Shown here: positions 29,595 through 39,140 of the stretch, in pieces
Layout of the letters: each line of letters opens with the position of its first letter
Numbering within the stretch: the first letter of the stretch is position 1
Assembly (NCBI GenBank): GCA_028867755.1
Contig: JAGWFT010000002.1
Span: 192,001 to 256,000 of the forward strand
Reading direction: 5' to 3'
Source: Nitrososphaerota archaeon
Lineage (GTDB): Archaea; Thermoproteota; Nitrososphaeria; Nitrososphaerales; Nitrosopumilaceae
Length of the DNA: 64,000 bases
Notes under the pieces: model-generated
Told to the model about the DNA's origin: nothing
The model's input: the letters and a program-made list of their open reading frames with translations, nothing else
Databases searched by the model: none
Made by a program: the position numbers and the translations under genes

Positions 29595-30782
29595 TCACCC
29601 CTTTTTTAGTAATTTATTAGCTTCTGTTGATTGCAGCCCCCACAATTCTACAAATCCTTTTGCAAGGGTCTGGTCGAAAGTGGAACCTGAACCATATGTT
29701 GCTAAGTCATGACTATACAATGAATAATCTGATTTTCTTCCAACCACTCTAAGACTTCCTTTGAACATTTTGAGCTTTACAGTTCCGCTAACTCTTTTCT
29801 GTGACATATTGATAAACATATCTAAATCTGTTTTCAGAGGATCTTGCCAGAGCCCGGAATATGCGAGCCATGCCCATTCCGAGTCAACCATTGCTTTGAA
29901 TTTTAATTCGTGTTTTGTAAGAACCATTTTTTCTAGATCGGTATGTGCCTCAATAAGACAGAGAGCTGCTGGCGTCTCGTATACCTCTCGAGATTTTATT
30001 CCAACCACTCTGTCCTCTATGTGATCTACTATTCCAACACCTGCCGCTCCGGCCTTTTTGTTGACGTATTGGATTAACTCCATTGGTTTTAGATTCCTGC
30101 CGTCTACTGCCACCGGTATTCCCTGCCTGAACTTTATCTCCAAGTACTGTGGCCTGTCTGGCAAGTTTTTTGTCTTGACCCAGATGAAAGCGTCTTCTGG
30201 TGGCTCTGCAAATGCATCTTCAAGATCACCTCCCTCTATTGCTCTTCCCCAAAGGTTTTGGTCTATGCTAAACCTCTTTGCTGCAGTATCAATCTGTATT
30301 CCATGCTTTTTTGCAAATTTTAATTCAATATCGCGAGTAAGGTTGAGGTCCCTGATGGGGGCAATGATTGGCAAAGTAGAGCCTGATCGCATGGTGACAT
30401 CAAATCGCACCTGATCATTTCCTTTTCCAGTACAGCCATGAGCCAATGCCTCCGCGTTCTCTTTTTTTGCAATCTCTACTACCTTTTGAGCAATTAATGG
30501 TCTTGCAAGAGCCGTTGCAAGACAATATTTTTTTTGGTATAGTGCATTTGCCTTGATTGAAGGTATTATGAAATCCTCTACAAACTCGCTTCTTGCATCA
30601 ACGTTGTAATGCCTTACCACTCCAAGTTTTTTTGCCTTGGCTGTAATTTTTTTCAGATCGTCGCCCTGACCAACATCAACTGTAATAGTGACTACATCTA
30701 GTCCGTGTTTTTCTTGAAGATATTTTACGACAACAGATGTGTCAAGTCCGCCAGAGAAAGCTAAAACTGCCTTTCCTTTCAT
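29595..30782 (-). CDS. argG: Argininosuccinate synthase
   Basis: LAFSGGLDTS, HGCTGKGNDQVRF, SIDQNLWGR, IKSREVYE. Confidence 0.97.
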   Translation of the reverse strand: MKGKAVLAFSGGLDTSVVVKYLQEKHGLDVVTITVDVGQGDDLKKITAKAKKLGVVRHYNVDARSEFVEDFIIPSIKANALYQKKYCLATALARPLIAQKVVEIAKKENAEALAHGCTGKGNDQVRFDVTMRSGSTLPIIAPIRDLNLTRDIELKFAKKHGIQIDTAAKRFSIDQNLWGRAIEGGDLEDAFAEPPEDAFIWVKTKNLPDRPQYLEIKFRQGIPVAVDGRNLKPMELIQYVNKKAGAAGVGIVDHIEDRVVGIKSREVYETPAALCLIEAHTDLEKMVLTKHELKFKAMVDSEWAWLAYSGLWQDPLKTDLDMFINMSQKRVSGTVKLKMFKGSLRVVGRKSDYSLYSHDLATYGSGSTFDQTLAKGFVELWGLQSTEANKLLKKG

Positions 30783-31024
30783 TGAGGTTTTCTGTGATCA
30801 GATTTTAGCATTTATCTTTTATGGTATGCAATCTGATCCGTTCTGTCCTGTCAAAAAACTTGAAAAATTATTTTTTCATCAATGAGAGAAAGCAACTTAG
30901 TCCAAGCTAAAATTCGATTACTATTTAACCGCAATATTATAACGCTGTTATATGAAAATTATTCCCCTTTCGGGCATATATTACGATATGTCGTACAGCA
31001 ACAGTCAAAGAAGAGGGTAGTCAA

Positions 31025-31801
31025 ATGACAAAACTCCAGGCAAAAAACATTGTAAAACATTTTGATCACAACGGTAACTCAGTTCTTGCACTTGATGGAA
31101 TAACTCTTGATGTGCAAGAAGGGGACTTTGTCTGCATTGTGGGACCATCAGGATGTGGCAAGTCTACATTTCTAAATATTGTTGCAGGTCTTGAAAAACC
31201 AGACTCTGGAGATGTATTGCTTAATGGAAATTCTATCTCCACTCCAGGACCTGACAGGACGATGGTCTTTCAAGAAGGTGCGCTCTTTCCATGGCTCAAG
31301 GTTATTGATAACGTAGAGTTTGGACTCAAGATGGCAGGAATTCCAAAGGATGAACGCAGACAAATATCGCAAAGATATCTTGACATGATGCAACTAACCA
31401 AGTTTGCAGACTCGTATACATATCAGCTATCGACTGGAATGAAACAAAGAGTTGCAATAGCAAGAGCACTTGCTATGGATCCGGAAATTTTGTTGATGGA
31501 TGAACCATTTGCAGCTCTTGACTCTCAGACAAGAGATCTCTTACTTGTAGAACTGCAACTCATATGGGAGAGGACAAAAAAGACAATCATCTTTGTAACA
31601 CACAACATCTCTGAATCTGTCATACTGGGAAACCGCGTAGTAGTTTTCAAAAACAGGCCTTCTAAGATAAAAAAAGAGATAGTTATCGATTATAGAAGAC
31701 CACGACTAATGGAGGATGAGAATCTCCAGAAATATTATCATCAGATTGTAGAAGAGCTCAAGAGCGAAGTGATTGCGCAAATAAAGGATGAGAACCAATG
31801 A
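31025..31801 (+). CDS. ABC transporter ATP-binding protein, NitT/TauT (SsuB/TauB-like)
   Basis: GPSGCGKST, LSTGMKQRVAIARAL, LMDEPFAALD, VTHN. Confidence 0.92.
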   Translation: MTKLQAKNIVKHFDHNGNSVLALDGITLDVQEGDFVCIVGPSGCGKSTFLNIVAGLEKPDSGDVLLNGNSISTPGPDRTMVFQEGALFPWLKVIDNVEFGLKMAGIPKDERRQISQRYLDMMQLTKFADSYTYQLSTGMKQRVAIARALAMDPEILLMDEPFAALDSQTRDLLLVELQLIWERTKKTIIFVTHNISESVILGNRVVVFKNRPSKIKKEIVIDYRRPRLMEDENLQKYYHQIVEELKSEVIAQIKDENQ

Positions 31802-32598
31802 ACGAGAAAGTAATCTCTGAGAAAAACTCGCAAGGCCTTCACGACGCAGCAAACGCTGCTTTACTATTGGCAATCTTTGTTGGTGTGTGGCAAGTGGTAT
31901 TCATGCTTGGAATATGGCCTCAGATATCCTTGCCATCTCCTGTCATGGTTGCAGAGTCGTTTGTCAAAATAATCTCAAACTTTTCTCTACCCGAAGGAAT
32001 TGGTATAACGCTGGGAAGACTTGTGTCCGCATTTGCAATCTCCATAGTTCTTGGGACACTCATAGGACTTGCAATGATCCGATTCAGGGGGTTTGGCAAG
32101 ACTCTTAATTCATTTTCTGCAGGTCTGCTATCATTTCCAAGCATCGCGTGGGTTCCGTTTTCAATTCTCTTGATAGGATTCAATGAGTTTGGCATACTGT
32201 TTGTAGTAATAATGAGCTCAATCTTTTCTGTGATGATCTCAACTTATAGCAGCATCAGAAATATTCCGCCGATATACCTTGATGCTGCAAAAAACATGGG
32301 TGCAAAAGGATTTGCCCTGTTCAGATATGTTACGTTGCCTGCAGCAACCCCGTCATTGATAATTGGGTTAAGACAAGGATGGTCATTTGCATGGCATGCA
32401 ATAATTGGAGCCGAAATACTCATGTCAATTGTAGGCCTAGGACACATACTTTCAGTTGGAAGAGAATTTTTGGATATGGGCGAGGTCATTGCCAGCATGA
32501 TTACAATATTTGCAATAGGATTGATAGTTGACAGATTTTTGCTCAACAAGATAGAGGAAAAGATACGAAGAAAGTGGGGACTTGATCACCATCGCTAA
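31798..32598 (+). CDS. ABC transporter permease, NitT/TauT (SsuC/TauC-like)
   Basis: PSIAWVP, DAAKNMGA (EAA-like loop), GLGH; six TM segments. Confidence 0.9.
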   Translation: MNEKVISEKNSQGLHDAANAALLLAIFVGVWQVVFMLGIWPQISLPSPVMVAESFVKIISNFSLPEGIGITLGRLVSAFAISIVLGTLIGLAMIRFRGFGKTLNSFSAGLLSFPSIAWVPFSILLIGFNEFGILFVVIMSSIFSVMISTYSSIRNIPPIYLDAAKNMGAKGFALFRYVTLPAATPSLIIGLRQGWSFAWHAIIGAEILMSIVGLGHILSVGREFLDMGEVIASMITIFAIGLIVDRFLLNKIEEKIRRKWGLDHHR

Positions 32599-32622
32599 AT
32601 GAAAAGATCTGTGTGAACTAAG

Positions 32623-33609
32623 TTGCTAGATGATCTTGTAAAAAATAGAGTAGATGCAAAAAAACCTCGAAAAGAAGGACTGACATATGTAGTTGATAGG
32701 CTTGAAAGCTACAACAAGGAAAACTGGGAGTTGCTTTCATCGTTTGTAGATGTAGTAAAGATAAACGGAGCACTGCCGCTTTTGGCATCAGAACAGAGTC
32801 TTATCAAGAAAATAAAATTCTACCATGATCTTGGAATTCTTGTCTCGACAGGACATATTAGTACGGAATATTCAATTGCTCAGAACTCATTTGAAAGATA
32901 CGCCAAAGAAGCTGCAAAGCTAGAGTTTGATGTGATAGAAATTGGCGAGAACATTGTAGACTTGAGTGCGGAAAGAAAAAAGAAAATTAATGAAACAATA
33001 TTGTCGCTAGAACTAGAATCGCAGTGGAAAGTGGGAAAGCGCGATCCAAGACATCAGCTTACAGTAGAAGATACGTTATCCAAAGTGGAAGAACTGGTAA
33101 GTTTAGGTTCAAAAAAAGTAATAGTAGAGGCAAATCAGGGGTTTGGAGTTGGAATTTACGATGAGAATGGCAACGTGAAATGGGGATCTGTTGCGACTCT
33201 TACCAACAAGTATCCTCCAAACACGTTCATCTTTGAGGCGCCTCTTGAAACACAACAGTTTGCACTGATAGCAGAATTTGGAGAACGTGTTAATCTCTCT
33301 GAGGTATACGTAGATTCCATAATATCGGTAGAATCAGAACGACGTGGAATCCTGTCAAAATCTGCCTTTACTACAGTGAACCTAAGAGAAGAACCAGAGG
33401 GTGGACCTGCTGCAAAATTTATCTACTATATCATAAAGACAAAGTTTCCAATCGAGCAAAGTGACTTGATGAACTTGAGTTATCTTCCAAGAAGAACTGT
33501 ACAAAGCGCTATTGAAGATCTAAAAAATCAGGGTCTAATAATAGAAAGAACCAGTCTCAACGATGCAAGAAAAAGAGTTTACTATCCTATCAAGTCTGAA
33601 TGGCTGTAG
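32623..33609 (+). CDS. ComA (phosphosulfolactate synthase)-fold protein fused to a C-terminal winged helix-turn-helix
   Basis: KPRKEGLTYVVD, VGKR, VIVEA, GIYD, IFEAP, RRG as in ComA; tail LPRRTVQSAIEDLKNQGLIIE...DARKRVY. Confidence 0.78.
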   Translation: MLDDLVKNRVDAKKPRKEGLTYVVDRLESYNKENWELLSSFVDVVKINGALPLLASEQSLIKKIKFYHDLGILVSTGHISTEYSIAQNSFERYAKEAAKLEFDVIEIGENIVDLSAERKKKINETILSLELESQWKVGKRDPRHQLTVEDTLSKVEELVSLGSKKVIVEANQGFGVGIYDENGNVKWGSVATLTNKYPPNTFIFEAPLETQQFALIAEFGERVNLSEVYVDSIISVESERRGILSKSAFTTVNLREEPEGGPAAKFIYYIIKTKFPIEQSDLMNLSYLPRRTVQSAIEDLKNQGLIIERTSLNDARKRVYYPIKSEWL

Positions 33610-33653
33610 AAAAAACAATCTGAAGAACAAAAATGACAAATAAAATTAATTGT

Positions 33654-33683
33654 ATAATTTGCACATTATAATCATAATTTGCA
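33654..33683. repeat. Direct repeat ATAATTTGCA x2 with 20-bp period upstream of the substrate-binding protein gene
   Basis: Copies at 33654-33663 and 33674-33683. Confidence 0.5.
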
Positions 33684-33729
33684 TATTTGAATTCGGTTAT
33701 ATTAGAACAAATTCAAGCACGCGTGTAAG

Positions 33730-34800
33730 ATGAACGTAATAGCAAAATTTGGAATTGCAGGTGTAATAATAGCAGTAGTAATTGCCCTAAGTTTTATCTC
33801 AATTTCTGGCAATACACAAACACATGTAGTATCAGAATCTTCATCTGACACTCTACGCATTGGATATTTCCCAAACATAAGCCATGCACAAGCAGTAATA
33901 GGGCTTGGAAATGGTGATTATCAAAAGGAACTTGGAAATATTCAAGTAGAAACACAGGTGTTCAATGCAGGACCTGCTGCTATCGAAGCACTCTTTGCAA
34001 ATAGAATTGATGTTGCATATGTAGGACCAAACCCTGCAATTAATGGATATATCAAATCAGACGGTCAAGGACTGCGAGTTATTGCTGGTGCCGCAAGTGG
34101 AGGCACAGTTTTTGTTGTACGAAATGATGATGGCATAAACTCAGTAAATGATTTGGGTGGAAAAAAATTTGCTTCTCCTCAACTTGGAAATACACAAGAT
34201 GTAGCACTTAGGTCATTTTTACTCAAAAATGGATACAAAACTTCTGATAATGGTGGAACTGTTCAAGTAATCCCTGCTGCAAATCCTGATATCTTTACTA
34301 TGATGTTAAAGAAAGACATTGACGGTGCATGGGTTCCAGAACCATGGGGGACTAAACTGGAAAAAGAAGCAAACGGAAAGATTCTAGTTGATGAGAGAGA
34401 CTTGTGGCCAAATGGCAAGTTTGCTACTGCTTTGATAGTGGTAAGAACTGACTATTTGCAAAACCATCCTGATATAATCAAGAAATTGTTAGAGGCTCAC
34501 GTCAATGAGACTAATTGGATAAACAACAACAAGGATAAAGCAATATCAGTTTTCAACGATCAACTAGAAAAATTGACAGGCAAACAGCTTCCATCAGACG
34601 AGCTTGAAGAAGCCTTCTCAAGAATGGACTTGACGTATGATCCAATGCAAGATTCACTTTACAAATCAGCAGATGCCGCATTTAACTTGGGATTCTTGGG
34701 TGATACAAAGCCTGATCTAAGCAACATATTTGACCTTAATCTTCTCAATCAAGTGTTAGGCGAAAATAACTTACCTGCAATATCTCAAATATCTGGTTAG
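33730..34800 (+). CDS. ABC substrate-binding protein, SsuA/aliphatic-sulfonate type, N-terminally anchored
   Basis: RIGYFPNISHA, FNAGP, YVGPNPAING, PQLGNTQD, WVPEPW. Confidence 0.88.
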   Translation: MNVIAKFGIAGVIIAVVIALSFISISGNTQTHVVSESSSDTLRIGYFPNISHAQAVIGLGNGDYQKELGNIQVETQVFNAGPAAIEALFANRIDVAYVGPNPAINGYIKSDGQGLRVIAGAASGGTVFVVRNDDGINSVNDLGGKKFASPQLGNTQDVALRSFLLKNGYKTSDNGGTVQVIPAANPDIFTMMLKKDIDGAWVPEPWGTKLEKEANGKILVDERDLWPNGKFATALIVVRTDYLQNHPDIIKKLLEAHVNETNWINNNKDKAISVFNDQLEKLTGKQLPSDELEEAFSRMDLTYDPMQDSLYKSADAAFNLGFLGDTKPDLSNIFDLNLLNQVLGENNLPAISQISG

Positions 34801-35549
34801 AGTTTTTTCAGTACTTCAAGCGCTCCCCTGAAATCATTTGGAGAACTCAAAAGCACATCGCCTGCAATTCTATGAACTTGTTTTACAAATCCTACCATGT
34901 CCTTACTGTATCCCGACCAGTCAAGGTTGAGCATCTGTGCAGATTTTTGGTTGAGCTCTGATGCTAACAACACACATGGTATTATCCTAAATCCTTGTGG
35001 CTTTAGCTTGTCAACTATGTTTGTTACCTGATCAACAGAGCTTATGACCTGTGTGACAAACCCCTTTGGCCGTGCTTCAACTTTTTTGTGGATCTTGTCA
35101 AAATTGGGATTTGATGAAATTGAGAGATAAAGGTCAATTTTTTCTCCAAAGCCCTGCTCGTTGAATTGTTTTACAACTTCGCTTGGAACAAGTCTAGAGT
35201 CCTTGGGGCCAGTAGGCGGCGGGTCGCCTTTGACTACTAGCACCCCATTCAAGTTCAAAAGTATCGCATCACAAATGGTTTGCGTAATTGATGTGTGGTT
35301 CCTGTCCCGCACTCGTACGCTTGCAGAAATCTTGATCTTGTCATTAGAGTTTTTAATGAAGAAACCCGCAGTTATTGGAGATATTCTTGGGATGCCAAGA
35401 ACAGAATCTGTAACATGTATGCCATCGCAGACCTTTCCCACCTCTTCAGATTTTGACTTGAATTTATCAACAGATTCCTGTAATTCACTGTGAGAAAGTA
35501 TTTTGCCCTGTATTACCTTTGGAGGGTTTAACTCATAAATTATCGTCAT
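34797..35549 (-). CDS. metF: Methylenetetrahydrofolate reductase-like (divergent MetF fold)
   Basis: IIYELNPPK, HVTDS, VRVRDRN, VVKGDPP, FVTQV; divergent from the metH genes. Confidence 0.65.
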   Translation of the reverse strand: MTIIYELNPPKVIQGKILSHSELQESVDKFKSKSEEVGKVCDGIHVTDSVLGIPRISPITAGFFIKNSNDKIKISASVRVRDRNHTSITQTICDAILLNLNGVLVVKGDPPPTGPKDSRLVPSEVVKQFNEQGFGEKIDLYLSISSNPNFDKIHKKVEARPKGFVTQVISSVDQVTNIVDKLKPQGFRIIPCVLLASELNQKSAQMLNLDWSGYSKDMVGFVKQVHRIAGDVLLSSPNDFRGALEVLKKL

Positions 35550-35641: not shown

Positions 35642-36607
35642 TTGTTGTTGACAAAAACTCCTCTTGCTGAACTGATGAAACAAAAGGTAGTGCTCTTTGA
35701 CGGAGCGATGGGAACTGAGATTCAAAAATTAAATCCGCAAGCAGAAGACTTTCCAGACGGAAAGGATGGCTTTAACGATGGCCTGTCTTTTACAAGACCT
35801 GAATGGATAAAAAATATCCACAGAAATTATCTCAAGGCAGGAGCTGATTGCATAGAGACCAATACGTTTGGCTCAAACAAGCTCAAGCTAGAAGAATATG
35901 GCTATGGCGATAAAACATTAGAGTTTAATAAAAAAATTGCAGAACTTGCAGTTGAAATTACAAAAGAATTTTCTGATAAACCAAGATATGTAGTTGGTTC
36001 AATGGGACCAACAGGATATTTGCCAAGCTCAAACGATCCATCTCTTGGACAAATACCTCTTGAGAAAATTAGGGAGGCGTTTGAGATTCAGGCAGAGGGT
36101 TTGATATTGGGAGGTGTAGATGCATTGTTAATTGAGACAAGCCAGGACATTTTGGAAGTAAAGCTTGCAATAGAGGCATGTCATAGTGCAATAAAAAAGA
36201 CAGGAAAGAAAATTCCAATCGTTGCAAATGTAACCCTTGACAAGTATGGCAAGATGCTGCTTGGGACAAATATCCAAGCGGCATATACCACTGTGTCAGA
36301 CATGGGTGTAGATGCATTTGGACTTAATTGTTCTACTGGACCTGTTGAGATGACACCTAGCGTACAGTGGCTCAACGAACAAGATGAGCTACCATTGCTT
36401 GTTGTCCCAAATGCAGGAATGCCTGAGAACCAGGGAGGACGGGCGGTCTACAAGATGGCGCCTGAAGAGATGGCCAAAGTAATGCGTGATTTTCTCTCTC
36501 AGTATAACAAAGTACGAATTATAGGTGGTTGCTGCGGTACTGGCGTAGACCATATAGCATTTCTAAGAAAAATAATTGATGAAAAGCAATCAGAAAATAA
36601 GCGCTAG
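35642..36607 (+). CDS. metH: Methionine synthase, homocysteine-binding module (split MetH, part 1)
   Basis: DGAMGT, AGADCIETNTFG, IETSQD, GLNCS, PNAG, GGCCGT. Confidence 0.92.
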   Translation: MLLTKTPLAELMKQKVVLFDGAMGTEIQKLNPQAEDFPDGKDGFNDGLSFTRPEWIKNIHRNYLKAGADCIETNTFGSNKLKLEEYGYGDKTLEFNKKIAELAVEITKEFSDKPRYVVGSMGPTGYLPSSNDPSLGQIPLEKIREAFEIQAEGLILGGVDALLIETSQDILEVKLAIEACHSAIKKTGKKIPIVANVTLDKYGKMLLGTNIQAAYTTVSDMGVDAFGLNCSTGPVEMTPSVQWLNEQDELPLLVVPNAGMPENQGGRAVYKMAPEEMAKVMRDFLSQYNKVRIIGGCCGTGVDHIAFLRKIIDEKQSENKR

Positions 36608-36623: not shown

Positions 36624-39140
36624 TTGAGAGTCATTATGTTGAAAGATCCTCGAGTAAGTTCTGCATTAAAAGCGGTAGACCTTAGGCAAAACCCCCCTCC
36701 TTTGATTATAGGTGAGAGGCTCAATGCACAAGGATCAAAGAAGGCAAAAGAGTGTGTACTAAACGACAATTTTGAGGAACTATCAAAGATTGCAAGAGAT
36801 CAAGTGGAAGATGGGGCGCACTGTCTTGATGTATGTGTTGCCACGACAGAGCGTTCAGACGAACTTGAGTTTATGAAAAAACTTGTAAAGTTGCTAAGCC
36901 TTGAAATTGATGCTCCACTTGTAATAGACTCGACTGAGGCCAAAGTCATTGCATCTGCACTAGAACAAATTCCTGGTAAACCAATCATAAATTCAATTAA
37001 TCTGGAAGGAGATGGTAGCAGATTTCATTCGCTTGCTCCTTTGATGGTAAAGTACGGAGTTCCTGCAATTGCTATGTGTATAGGACCAAAAGGAATGGCA
37101 AAAACTCCACAGGAAAAACTTGAAACTGCAGAACTTCTTCTTGAAACAGGAAAAAGTTATGGGCTGCAAGAGCAGCACTTTATCTTTGATGTTCTAACTT
37201 TTACATTAGCGACAGGTGAGGCAGAATTTCTTGATGCTGGAAAAAATACTCTAGAAGGAATCAGTCTAGTAAAGAAAAGATTTCCAAATTCGTTTACAAC
37301 GCTTGGGTTAAGCAACGTGAGCTTTGGTCTTGCTCCAAGGGCAAGAAAGATACTAAATGCTGTATTTTTGTATCATGCTGTAAAAGCAGGTCTTGACACA
37401 GTCATAATAAACCCAAAAGATGTCATTCCATATCCAGAAATTGATGAGAAGGAAAGACATGTTGCAGAAGATCTGATATTCAACAAGCATCCAAACGCTC
37501 TTGCAGAGTTTATCGCATATTTTGAGGCAACCAAATCAACTGCTCAGCTTGCTGCAAAGAAAGTCGAGGTTGATCCATCATGGCCTGCTGGAAAACGCTC
37601 TAACTTTAGGATAGTCAATAGAATTCGAGACGGGATAGAAAGAGACGTTGTAAGTGCAATATCTGAAAAGATTTCAGGACAACATGACATCTTAGAAAAA
37701 GAAGGCATGATAACCATTGATGCACCAAAAGAGGTTACACATTCTGCTGCAATCCAGACATTAAATGATGATCTACTGCCTGCAATGAAGGAGGTAGGTG
37801 ACAAGTTTGGAGCAGGAGAGCTCATACTGCCATTTGTTCTAAAATCTGCGGAATGCATGAAGGCTGCAGTTGCAGAACTTGAGAAATATTTGCTGAAGGA
37901 GAAAGGTAGCACAAAAGGAAAACTTGTTCTGGGTACAGTTTATGGTGATGTTCATGATATTGGAAAGAATCTAGTCAAAACAATTTTTGAAAACAATGGA
38001 TACACTGTCTATGATCTGGGAAAACAGGTTCCAATGCAAAAGTTTCTTGAAAAAATTGAAGAAGTAAAGGCAGATGCAATTGGATTGTCTGCACTCTTGG
38101 TTTCAACATCAAAGCAGATGCAATTCTTCGTAGAACATGCAAGAAAAAACAATATGCATATTCCAGTATTGTGTGGAGGAGCTGCAATAAACAGTAATTA
38201 TATCAACAGAATTGCAAAAGATGGTGGCATATACGAACCAGGAGTATTTTACTGCAAAACCATGTTTGATGGCCTTAAGACAATGGATAGTCTTGTGTCT
38301 GCAGAAAAACAAAAGTTTGTGCAGCAATGGCAGGAAAGAATTTCGAAATGGACAGAGACCGTAATTGAAAGACATGAAGGACAGGTAACAGAACGCAGCG
38401 AGATAAAGCCTGTTACTCCGCCAACTCCACCTCATACCAATAAGACAATAAGGCTTGAGCCAAAAGACATTGACCTAAATGAGGTATGGGAGTTTTTGGA
38501 CAAGAAATCACTTTTTGTACTTTCTTGGGGACTACGTGGAAAATCTGCCAAAGAATCAGAAGCTGAACATGAAATACTTTTTGAAGAGTGGAAGAAAAAA
38601 GTTCTTGCAGAAAAATTGTTTGAACCACAATCTGTATATGGATACTTTGTATGTCATGGAAAAGATGGAAAGCTAACTGTAGACCATCCAAGTGGGGGAA
38701 AACTTGTGTTTGAGTTTCCGCGCTCGTCTAGGTCCAAGCATCTCTGCCTGGCTGACTATTTTGGTCAAGACGACATAGTTGCTTTTCAAGCAGTGACTGT
38801 GGGAAACAAAGTCTCTGAGATAATTGAAAAATGGAACAAGGAAGACAAGTACACTGATGCCTATTACTTGCATGGGCTTGCAGTTGAAACAGCAGAAGCC
38901 ATGGCAGCATGGATAAACCAAAAAATAAAAGATGAGCTAAAAATTGATGGAAAACGTGGATTGAGATACAGTTGGGGGTATCCCAGTTGTCCAGACGTAT
39001 CACAACACTATATTGTCTGGAAACTACTGGAACCAGAAAAGTCTGGCATGACACTTACAGAATCAGGACAAATAGTTCCAGAACAATCGACTGCGGCTAT
39101 AGTTGTACACCACCCAGAAGCAGAATATTTCGCACTTTGA
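36624..39140 (+). CDS. metH: Methionine synthase pterin/B12-binding/reactivation modules (split MetH, part 2)
   Basis: IGERLN, GLSNVSFG, GDVHDIGKNLV (B12 His), SALLVST, RYSWGYPSCPD. Confidence 0.93.
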   Translation: MRVIMLKDPRVSSALKAVDLRQNPPPLIIGERLNAQGSKKAKECVLNDNFEELSKIARDQVEDGAHCLDVCVATTERSDELEFMKKLVKLLSLEIDAPLVIDSTEAKVIASALEQIPGKPIINSINLEGDGSRFHSLAPLMVKYGVPAIAMCIGPKGMAKTPQEKLETAELLLETGKSYGLQEQHFIFDVLTFTLATGEAEFLDAGKNTLEGISLVKKRFPNSFTTLGLSNVSFGLAPRARKILNAVFLYHAVKAGLDTVIINPKDVIPYPEIDEKERHVAEDLIFNKHPNALAEFIAYFEATKSTAQLAAKKVEVDPSWPAGKRSNFRIVNRIRDGIERDVVSAISEKISGQHDILEKEGMITIDAPKEVTHSAAIQTLNDDLLPAMKEVGDKFGAGELILPFVLKSAECMKAAVAELEKYLLKEKGSTKGKLVLGTVYGDVHDIGKNLVKTIFENNGYTVYDLGKQVPMQKFLEKIEEVKADAIGLSALLVSTSKQMQFFVEHARKNNMHIPVLCGGAAINSNYINRIAKDGGIYEPGVFYCKTMFDGLKTMDSLVSAEKQKFVQQWQERISKWTETVIERHEGQVTERSEIKPVTPPTPPHTNKTIRLEPKDIDLNEVWEFLDKKSLFVLSWGLRGKSAKESEAEHEILFEEWKKKVLAEKLFEPQSVYGYFVCHGKDGKLTVDHPSGGKLVFEFPRSSRSKHLCLADYFGQDDIVAFQAVTVGNKVSEIIEKWNKEDKYTDAYYLHGLAVETAEAMAAWINQKIKDELKIDGKRGLRYSWGYPSCPDVSQHYIVWKLLEPEKSGMTLTESGQIVPEQSTAAIVVHHPEAEYFAL

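Follow-up and report, generated by a model that had tools for sequence, protein, structure and literature searches.

A ComA-type barrel fused to a winged helix as a candidate local regulator of a NitT/TauT-type importer in ammonia-oxidizing archaea

Introduction

What does a protein of the phosphosulfolactate synthase (ComA) family do when it ends in a winged helix and is encoded among the genes of an ATP-binding cassette (ABC) importer? The question is raised by a gene at positions 32623-33609 (plus strand) of the window, by which we mean the whole 64,000-nucleotide stretch analysed here (contig JAGWFT010000002.1, positions 192,001 to 256,000, of a Nitrososphaerota archaeon, a soil ammonia oxidizer). 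The gene is the third of four co-directional plus-strand genes at window positions 31025-34800; it starts with TTG, 24 nt past the stop codon of the permease gene, and encodes 328 amino acids (aa), in which a TIM barrel of the ComA type is joined to a C-terminal winged helix. Public records call the product phosphosulfolactate synthase. A preliminary description, prepared from the DNA letters, took it for a catalytically altered barrel that binds a sulfonate or sulfite-type ligand and regulates uptake, rather than for a coenzyme M enzyme. We arrive at a related reading, to which we assign a probability of roughly 0.58: the fusion would be a one-component local regulator of the NitT/TauT-type importer, with a sensor derived from ComA.

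To our knowledge, few transcription regulators of ammonia-oxidizing archaea (AOA) have a known target, and the regulation of sulfur uptake in these organisms is not understood. The literature searched contained no paper meaningfully joining phosphosulfolactate synthase with AOA, and no description of the fusion.

Results

The barrel is assigned to PF02679 (ComA) over residues 12-244, with an E-value of 3.1e-58 and 197.5 bits (cut-off 25.2), and is about 30% identical to ComA (the family of Methanocaldococcus jannaschii 1QWG and Bacillus subtilis 1U83); at 150.2 bits, the fusion stays below the equivalog cut-off of TIGR03849 (280 bits). An AlphaFold2 (AF2) model built on 34 homologues has three parts: a TIM barrel (residues 20-240), a linker (241-254), and a canonical winged helix. 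From the Pfam match, the AF2 and domain models and Foldseek, we delimit the barrel as residues 1-240 (32623-33342), the linker, which is of low confidence (predicted local distance difference test, pLDDT, below 50), as residues 241-254 (33343-33384), and the winged helix as residues 255-328 plus the stop codon (33385-33609), all on the plus strand. The best structural match of the modelled barrel is M. jannaschii ComA (1qwg; Foldseek TMt 0.82), which places it within the TIM-barrel fold.

Aligned to 1qwg, the barrel departs from ComA in the three motifs that the preliminary description had listed: KFGWGT is replaced by KINGAL, EVGKK by KVGKR, and EGRESGKG by EANQ-GFG; all three changes are fixed in the AOA clade. 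The extent of the remodelling is seen when 87 canonical ComA representatives are aligned jointly with 34 AOA fusions and 21 further relatives of fusion length, in an analysis that follows a barrel search across 1.84 billion representatives. Eight substitutions are fixed in the AOA clade, G50A, G78S, S108G, G110N, E136K, R171N, N227E and R245S, at positions where the canonical residue is conserved in 82%, 100%, 97%, 86%, 98%, 82%, 98% and 84% of the 87 canonical representatives, respectively; the AOA fusions thereby depart from the canonical catalytic-face set (K-x-G-W/F-G-T, E-V/I-S-D-G, S-E-V-G-K-K, E-G/A-R-E-G, and N227). In the AF2 model, the changed residues 108, 110, 136 and 171 lie at or just past the C-terminal ends of β-strands, that is, on the catalytic face of the TIM barrel. 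Most canonical positions of at least 75% conservation are retained, including K46, E82, E106, G138 and E169, as well as E205, P207, Q211, N224 and R240.

The genome from which the window is taken (1.64 Mb, 99.95% complete) has a single ComA homologue. ComB (PF04029) and ComC (PF02615), both of which are matched in control genomes, have no match in the window, as had been noted before, nor anywhere in this genome; with both pathway partners missing, the view that the protein does not belong to a coenzyme M pathway is supported. The genome encodes ATP sulfurylase (sat) and sulfite reductase; TauD was not found in it, nor was an SsuD equivalog, the best match to the SsuD model scoring 72 bits against a cut-off of 518. 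A genomic survey of nitrifiers found neither tauABC nor taurine catabolism (PMC10753782).

These data bear on the main alternative, a trigger enzyme whose barrel still catalyses while the same protein binds DNA, so that flux and transcription would be linked. Candidate reactions are phosphosulfolactate synthesis and related ones, for example the elimination of sulfite from a C3 sulfonate taken up by the cell. With sat and sulfite reductase present, sulfite does occur as a metabolite in this organism, and the barrel is the only protein of sulfonate chemistry found, there being no TauD and no SsuD equivalog. Its strong Pfam score and the invariance of K46, E106, E169, E205, Q211 and R240 on the catalytic face would fit an active enzyme, whereas E136K, R171N, S108G and N227E alter positions that are 82-98% conserved in canonical ComA, and neither ComB nor ComC is there to use a product. 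The fully canonical site of the basal fusions and the trimer interface kept in the co-fold (both described below) add to the case, although the latter may be explained by the solved 1QWG structure; what detracts from it is that close relatives, like almost all of the marine genera sampled, have kept the importer without ComA. On balance, we consider a DNA-binding enzyme possible but rather unlikely.

The order of events was read from a tree built by maximum likelihood (quick search), in which the AOA clade (support 100) is nested in a clade of 20 rows (support 99), 17 of which are of fusion length; P0160 (304 aa) is somewhat shorter, and P0153 and P0206 (278-284 aa) look like partial sequences, since they lack the N-terminal barrel columns in the alignment. 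The basal members P0126, P0125 and P0130 have the canonical residues, with the sole exception of an A at position 136 in P0125, and P0128 and P0134 are intermediate, combining K136 with G171; the winged helix is present in all five. Because the AOA clade is thus nested in an all-fusion clade with canonical basal members, the two domains were joined before the pocket was remodelled; on the evidence of the tree, the fusion predates the active-site changes. This reverses the order in the preliminary description, in which the barrel diverged and then gained the winged helix.

A co-fold of three copies reaches an ipSAE of 0.77, against 0.00 for the best of three controls; in calibration, the mark was reached by 20 of 30 same-chain pairs and by 1 of 23 proteins solved as single chains. 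At least 71% of contacts are common to the runs, with a partner pLDDT of at least 81. The interface sets residues 48-57, the remodelled GWGT loop, against residues 230-244 of the neighboring chain, with the winged helices outside. Since the ComA trimer is already solved (1QWG), the pass may simply echo that structure and shows likeness only; the modelled barrel is probably still trimeric.

For the C-terminal tail, a separate AF2 model of residues 250-328 has a pLDDT of 88.8, and its best Foldseek matches are in the MarR family (3bpv, TMq 0.76, root-mean-square deviation 1.1 Å; 4mnu, E-value 1.3e-4), with MepR, FabT and ZitR, as DNA-bound structures, among the further ones. In these matches, 61-75 columns are aligned, with target lengths of 91-161 residues (about 124-161 among the MarR-family matches). 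According to these models, the tail is a MarR-type winged helix, in agreement with what had been proposed from the DNA. It comprises about 75 residues with nothing beyond the wing, and thus only the winged-helix core, the dimer helices of MarR being absent; in Pfam it gives weak MarR_2 matches at residues 277-316. Its recognition helix is LPRRTVQ (residues 288-294), of which the basic PRRTVQ is invariant in two alignments, as are R316 and further positions of the domain.

Some winged helices are known to bind proteins, and the tail might be a protein-protein or RNA-binding module that docks to the transporter or to the transcription machinery, the operator-like boxes described below then belonging to another factor. 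DNA binding by the tail is a prediction, and weak matches to the winged helix of RNA polymerase III Rpc34, both in relatives and in the fold search, point in the direction of docking; the closest structural matches, however, are DNA-bound MarR-family regulators, the PRRTVQ helix, R316 and other positions of the domain do not vary, the boxes track both the fusion gene and its recognition helix, and the cluster has no other conserved regulator gene. We therefore hold a docking role to be very unlikely.

Related winged helices occur elsewhere in these archaea. In one genome (G129; L033:6115-6860), a stand-alone winged-helix paralogue of 102 aa is divergent from a second copy of the ComA fusion; it has 62% identity to the tail of the fusion, scores above the Pfam cut-off for MarR (26.2 against 24.6), and lies beside a 116-aa protein very rich in Cys and Met. 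The genome of the window encodes, outside the window, a 338-aa NAD kinase (PF01513 and PF20143; G000:C24:1101687-1102703, corresponding to L130:1188-2204, minus strand) that ends in a MarR-like winged helix sharing about 31% identity with the ComA-fusion tail. Of the 151 genomes sampled from the class, about 100 contain weak matches to the tail alone, within open frames of about 330-400 aa, on account of which fusions of enzymes with winged helices look recurrent in these archaea.

The fusion is linked to the importer well beyond the window. Among ten fusion copies from species-representative genomes, eight are accompanied within 5-8 kb by genes for this ATPase, permease and/or binding protein, in differing orders and orientations. 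A further 80 loci were compared, many of which run into a contig end; 60 of them have one or more of the three importer genes within 5 kb. The genes take at least four arrangements at these loci: co-directional, with the fusion either in the middle of the row or at its end, divergent, and convergent. In the distant fusion-clade members P0125, P0126, P0128 and P0134, which show 35-43% identity, the fusion gene in each case diverges from one for an NMT1_2 binding protein, and a more remote fusion is one gene away from a sulfur transporter of the YeeE/YedE type. Across the ten copies and the 80 loci, no other regulator gene is conserved in the cluster. Second fusion copies in Nitrososphaeraceae genomes (L038, L041) have no importer nearby; their neighbors, genes for CAP-domain, PNPOx-like and glyoxalase proteins, are uninformative on function.

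The proteins closest to the fusion come from Nitrosotalea and other AOA, and relatives are encoded at 213 loci in species-representative genomes, mostly of Nitrososphaera and other soil AOA. The full-length fusion is found in 8 of 151 evenly sampled genomes of the class, including 2 of 9 in the genus of the window (both tallies count G115 as negative); it is thus accessory in the lineage. Six relatives without the fusion have a syntenic ATPase-permease-binding-protein operon, in which the binding-protein gene directly follows the permease gene, and close relatives, as well as almost every marine genus sampled, have the importer without any ComA. The use of the importer is thus independent of the barrel; an obligatory catabolic lyase for the imported compound was considered and is less likely for the same reason, that relatives keep the importer without the barrel.

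A short sequence, TGCRYAT, accumulates in the upstream regions of the cluster genes. In 165 such regions from 80 loci (31.6 kb), it occurs 269 times, against 57 ± 8 in dinucleotide-preserving shuffles; its density upstream of cluster genes is 8.5 per kb, as compared with 0.78 per kb in the other intergenic gaps of the same loci (about 11-fold). At least one box is present in 64 of 73 upstream regions of fusion genes and in 43 of 50 of binding-protein genes.

The boxes come in two arrangements. The first, a palindrome of the form ATRYGCA-N5-TGCRYAT, lies 26-34 nt ahead of the start codon of the fusion gene, mainly in loci of the Nitrososphaera type, directly behind a TATA-like AAAAT or GAAAT element. 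In its strict form it occurs zero times or once in each of five whole genomes; the sole match, at the 5' end of an open reading frame (ORF) for an NHL-repeat protein in G142, is probably due to chance. A weight matrix of the palindrome finds no convincing further site in the genome of the window. In the second arrangement, TGCR boxes stand as direct repeats, in helical phase, before TTTGA(A/G)-N5-6-TTATAT; this was observed in 18 importer promoters, no two of them identical, that come from both major families of AOA, with a box at -6 in 18 of 18, at -15 in 14 of 18, and at -26 in 10 of 18.

The binding-protein promoter of the window belongs to the second type. On the plus strand, a distal operator-like box, TGCACAT (33660-33666), occupies the -26 position of the three-box promoter, and a proximal one, TGCATAT (33680-33686), the -6 position, where it abuts TTGAAT (33687-33692); the TATA-like TTATAT follows at 33697-33702, 28 nt before the ATG, in the same arrangement as in the 18 promoters. 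The composite motif occurs three times in the 1.64 Mb genome of the window (G000), an intergenic location being established only for the window copy at 33681; the second copy (C24:793979) is antisense inside a 586-aa ORF, and the third is at C24:578061. A 13-mer transfer scan ranked GCATATTTGAATT at the top; since AT-rich words tied with it, the scan is not decisive alone.

The boxes vary with the protein. Six relatives that lack the fusion and have the syntenic importer operon show zero or one box; where distant relatives retain LPRRTVQ, the shared intergenic region contains TGCR boxes, and the fusions P0139 and P0144, with a different recognition helix, have none. The claim that the protein regulates uptake thus gains comparative support, from conserved linkage, conserved boxes, and the lack of boxes where there is no fusion. 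The same observations complete the case on an ordinary phosphosulfolactate synthase whose tail has no regulatory role, the reading that accords with the name in public records and with a PF02679 score well over the gathering score: the protein is under the NCBIfam equivalog cut-off, its substitutions at conserved positions are fixed, its genome has no downstream pathway, its tail, of the MarR type in fold, is highly conserved and does not vary in the recognition helix, and the boxes co-occur with its gene. Of all the readings we weigh, we give this one the least credence, as extremely unlikely.

The upstream end of the cluster is organized differently. An alignment of syntenic regions from other genera reveals a conserved block in the intergenic region between argG and the ABC ATPase gene (30905-30958, plus strand), reading AGCTAAAATTCGAT..TATTTAACCGC..ATAACGCTGTTATATGAAAA, which is likely, as judged by its conservation, the core promoter of an operon of ATPase, permease and fusion. 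The block contains no TGCRYAT box in the box scan, and the alignment behind it includes genomes without the fusion. It is near-identical in marine genera that have a 45%-identical importer beside argG and no ComA fusion; probably it serves as a bidirectional promoter of deep conservation, or another factor binds there. The preliminary description had named 30783-31024, along with 33610-33729, as regions to probe for binding; the former has no box, and the boxes are at 33660-33686. A scan of 30600-33800 against Rfam gave no RNA family at E-values up to 1, and a scan for promoters and terminators of the sigma-70 type was uninformative, the host being an archaeon.

The genes flanking the fusion had been described as SsuBC-like and SsuA-like. 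The first, at 31025-31801 (plus strand), encodes an ABC ATP-binding subunit of the NitT/TauT type (PF00005, E-value 3.7e-32); its best NCBIfam matches, SaoA, NtrCD and TauB, are all under cut-off (TauB 223 against 357). The second (31798-32598, plus strand), which overlaps it by 4 nt, encodes the permease (PF00528, E-value 5.7e-17), with matches to SaoP, SsuC and TauC that are again all under cut-off (SsuC 90.5 against 347). The fourth (33730-34800, plus strand) encodes a substrate-binding protein of the SsuA/TauA family (TIGR01728, 230 bits against a cut-off of 163.5; PF13379, NMT1_2), whose nearest solved relative is TauA of Escherichia coli (E-value 1.6e-11). The description therefore holds for the presence of an ABC ATPase, a permease and an SsuA-family gene, and not at the level of SsuB/SsuC or TauB/TauC equivalogs, for which the ATPase and the permease fall far below the NCBIfam cut-offs; among the importer proteins, only the binding protein passes a family cut-off (TIGR01728).

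Some further observations concern the importer genes and their surroundings. In two genomes of the same genus that lack the fusion (G120:C2:31207-32268 and G102:C8:519173-520216), the orthologue of the binding-protein gene has one in-frame stop codon, TGA and TAG, respectively, which could reflect decay of the importer or an assembly error. In G111, about eight tandem 15-nt units of GACAAGAAAGCAGCT lie between the binding-protein and permease genes (L035:5620-5885, minus strand); if in frame, the repeat would encode a repeated stretch rich in Lys, Ala and Asp. In the window, the importer cluster is followed on the minus strand by an ORF of 250 aa (34797-35549) with a weak match to methylenetetrahydrofolate reductase (E-value 0.0017), adjoining a split methionine synthase (homocysteine-methyltransferase gene at 35642-36607, remaining domains at 36624-39140); the same reductase-like ORF and split synthase also border the importer in relatives.

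Discussion

We propose that each subunit of the barrel carries a MarR-type winged helix on a flexible linker and that the winged helices would read TGCRYAT boxes. At importer promoters, these would be the in-phase direct repeats just upstream of the TFB recognition element (BRE) and the TATA box, including the boxes at 33660 and 33680; because the boxes abut BRE/TATA from upstream, control of the recruitment of TATA-binding protein (TBP) and transcription factor B (TFB) is suggested, and activation would be the more likely outcome at these promoters. For fusion genes with a promoter of their own, the position of the palindrome between the TATA box and the start codon suggests autorepression. 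In the window, the ATPase, permease and fusion genes seem to share one transcript, driven by a promoter that is conserved across genera and has no box, so that here only the binding-protein gene would be under the control of the boxes.

The pocket, which has lost the canonical E (K136), R (N171), S108 and N227, and keeps K46, E106, E169, E205, Q211 and R240, probably binds a small sulfur oxyanion or a ligand resembling a C3 sulfonate, and would make no phosphosulfolactate; binding would tune the expression of the adjacent importer. That the ligand may be of this kind is suggested only by what the fold descends from, by the family to which the binding protein belongs, and by the sulfur-related surroundings of distant fusions. 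A set of three tethered winged helices would also fit three in-phase direct repeats. This leads to a more specific version of the proposal, which we offer tentatively and regard as somewhat doubtful: a novel type of factor with a trimeric sensor derived from ComA, which would place three winged helices on the direct repeats and two on the palindrome of its own promoter, and sense sulfite or a C3 sulfonate through the K136 pocket.

Several points weigh against reading the fusion as a regulator. Many polar residues of the pocket stay invariant, which fits catalysis as well as ligand binding, and the Pfam matches of the winged helix are sub-threshold (MarR_2, 19.5 bits against 27). The window has only two boxes, at -6 and -26, with the middle one missing, and is thinner in this respect than its relatives; the weight matrix of the palindrome ranks the window site tenth in the genome, at 13.8 of 30 bits; TGCRYAT is not enriched across the window (39 found, 35 expected); and the operon promoter at 30783-31024 has no box. 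The box signal is thus comparative and not local. The counts overstate independence, since the loci are phylogenetically related, and the motif was first spotted in a subset of the same family; binding of the fusion protein to the boxes is what we infer from their co-occurrence.

If true, the more specific version would provide the first sulfur-status regulator proposed for AOA of which we know, none being described in the literature searched. The family offers a concrete, testable set of regulator, operator and target, and is widespread in soil AOA. For genome annotation, the name phosphosulfolactate synthase could mislead metabolic reconstructions toward the synthesis of coenzyme M or sulfolactate. 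The canonical basal relatives and the remodelled AOA clade, finally, form a natural series that could show how an enzyme pocket becomes a sensor.

With ComA (M. jannaschii 1QWG; B. subtilis YitD, 1U83) the fusion shares the TIM-barrel family and the predicted trimer interface; unlike ComA, it carries a linker and a winged helix in addition, no longer has the GWGT loop, has fixed changes in the pocket, and is found in an ABC importer cluster, outside any coenzyme M context. A precedent for a ComA fold outside coenzyme M synthesis is plant HSA32, a ComA homologue with a non-enzymatic role that acts with HSP101 (bioRxiv 10.1101/2024.10.15.618377); HSA32, however, has no DNA-binding domain, and its context is unrelated.

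With regulators of the MarR/SlyA type (3BPV, MepR, ZitR, FabT), the fusion shares a winged-helix core (H1-b-H2-H3-wing) that superposes to 1.1-2.5 Å, a basic recognition helix and, in one predicted class of sites, a palindrome with 7-bp half-sites. It differs from them in missing the N- and C-terminal dimerization helices, in place of which the ComA barrel, a predicted trimer, would provide both oligomerization and sensing, and in its second predicted class of sites, which consists of three direct repeats in helical phase.

Enzyme folds that act, or double, as sensors of a DNA-binding domain are found in archaeal TrmB, in the NrtR regulators with their Nudix domain and winged helix-turn-helix, and in MocR/GabR, BirA and PutA. 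As a matter of general knowledge, the fusion would share with these regulators the logic of controlling neighboring uptake or metabolic genes; unlike in them, its sensor is predicted to be a TIM-barrel trimer and not a dimer. In the literature searched, no regulator family with a ComA barrel is described. Regulators with enzyme-derived sensors are thus known as a class, and what is new here is a ComA barrel, predicted to be trimeric, as the sensor, together with this set of operators.

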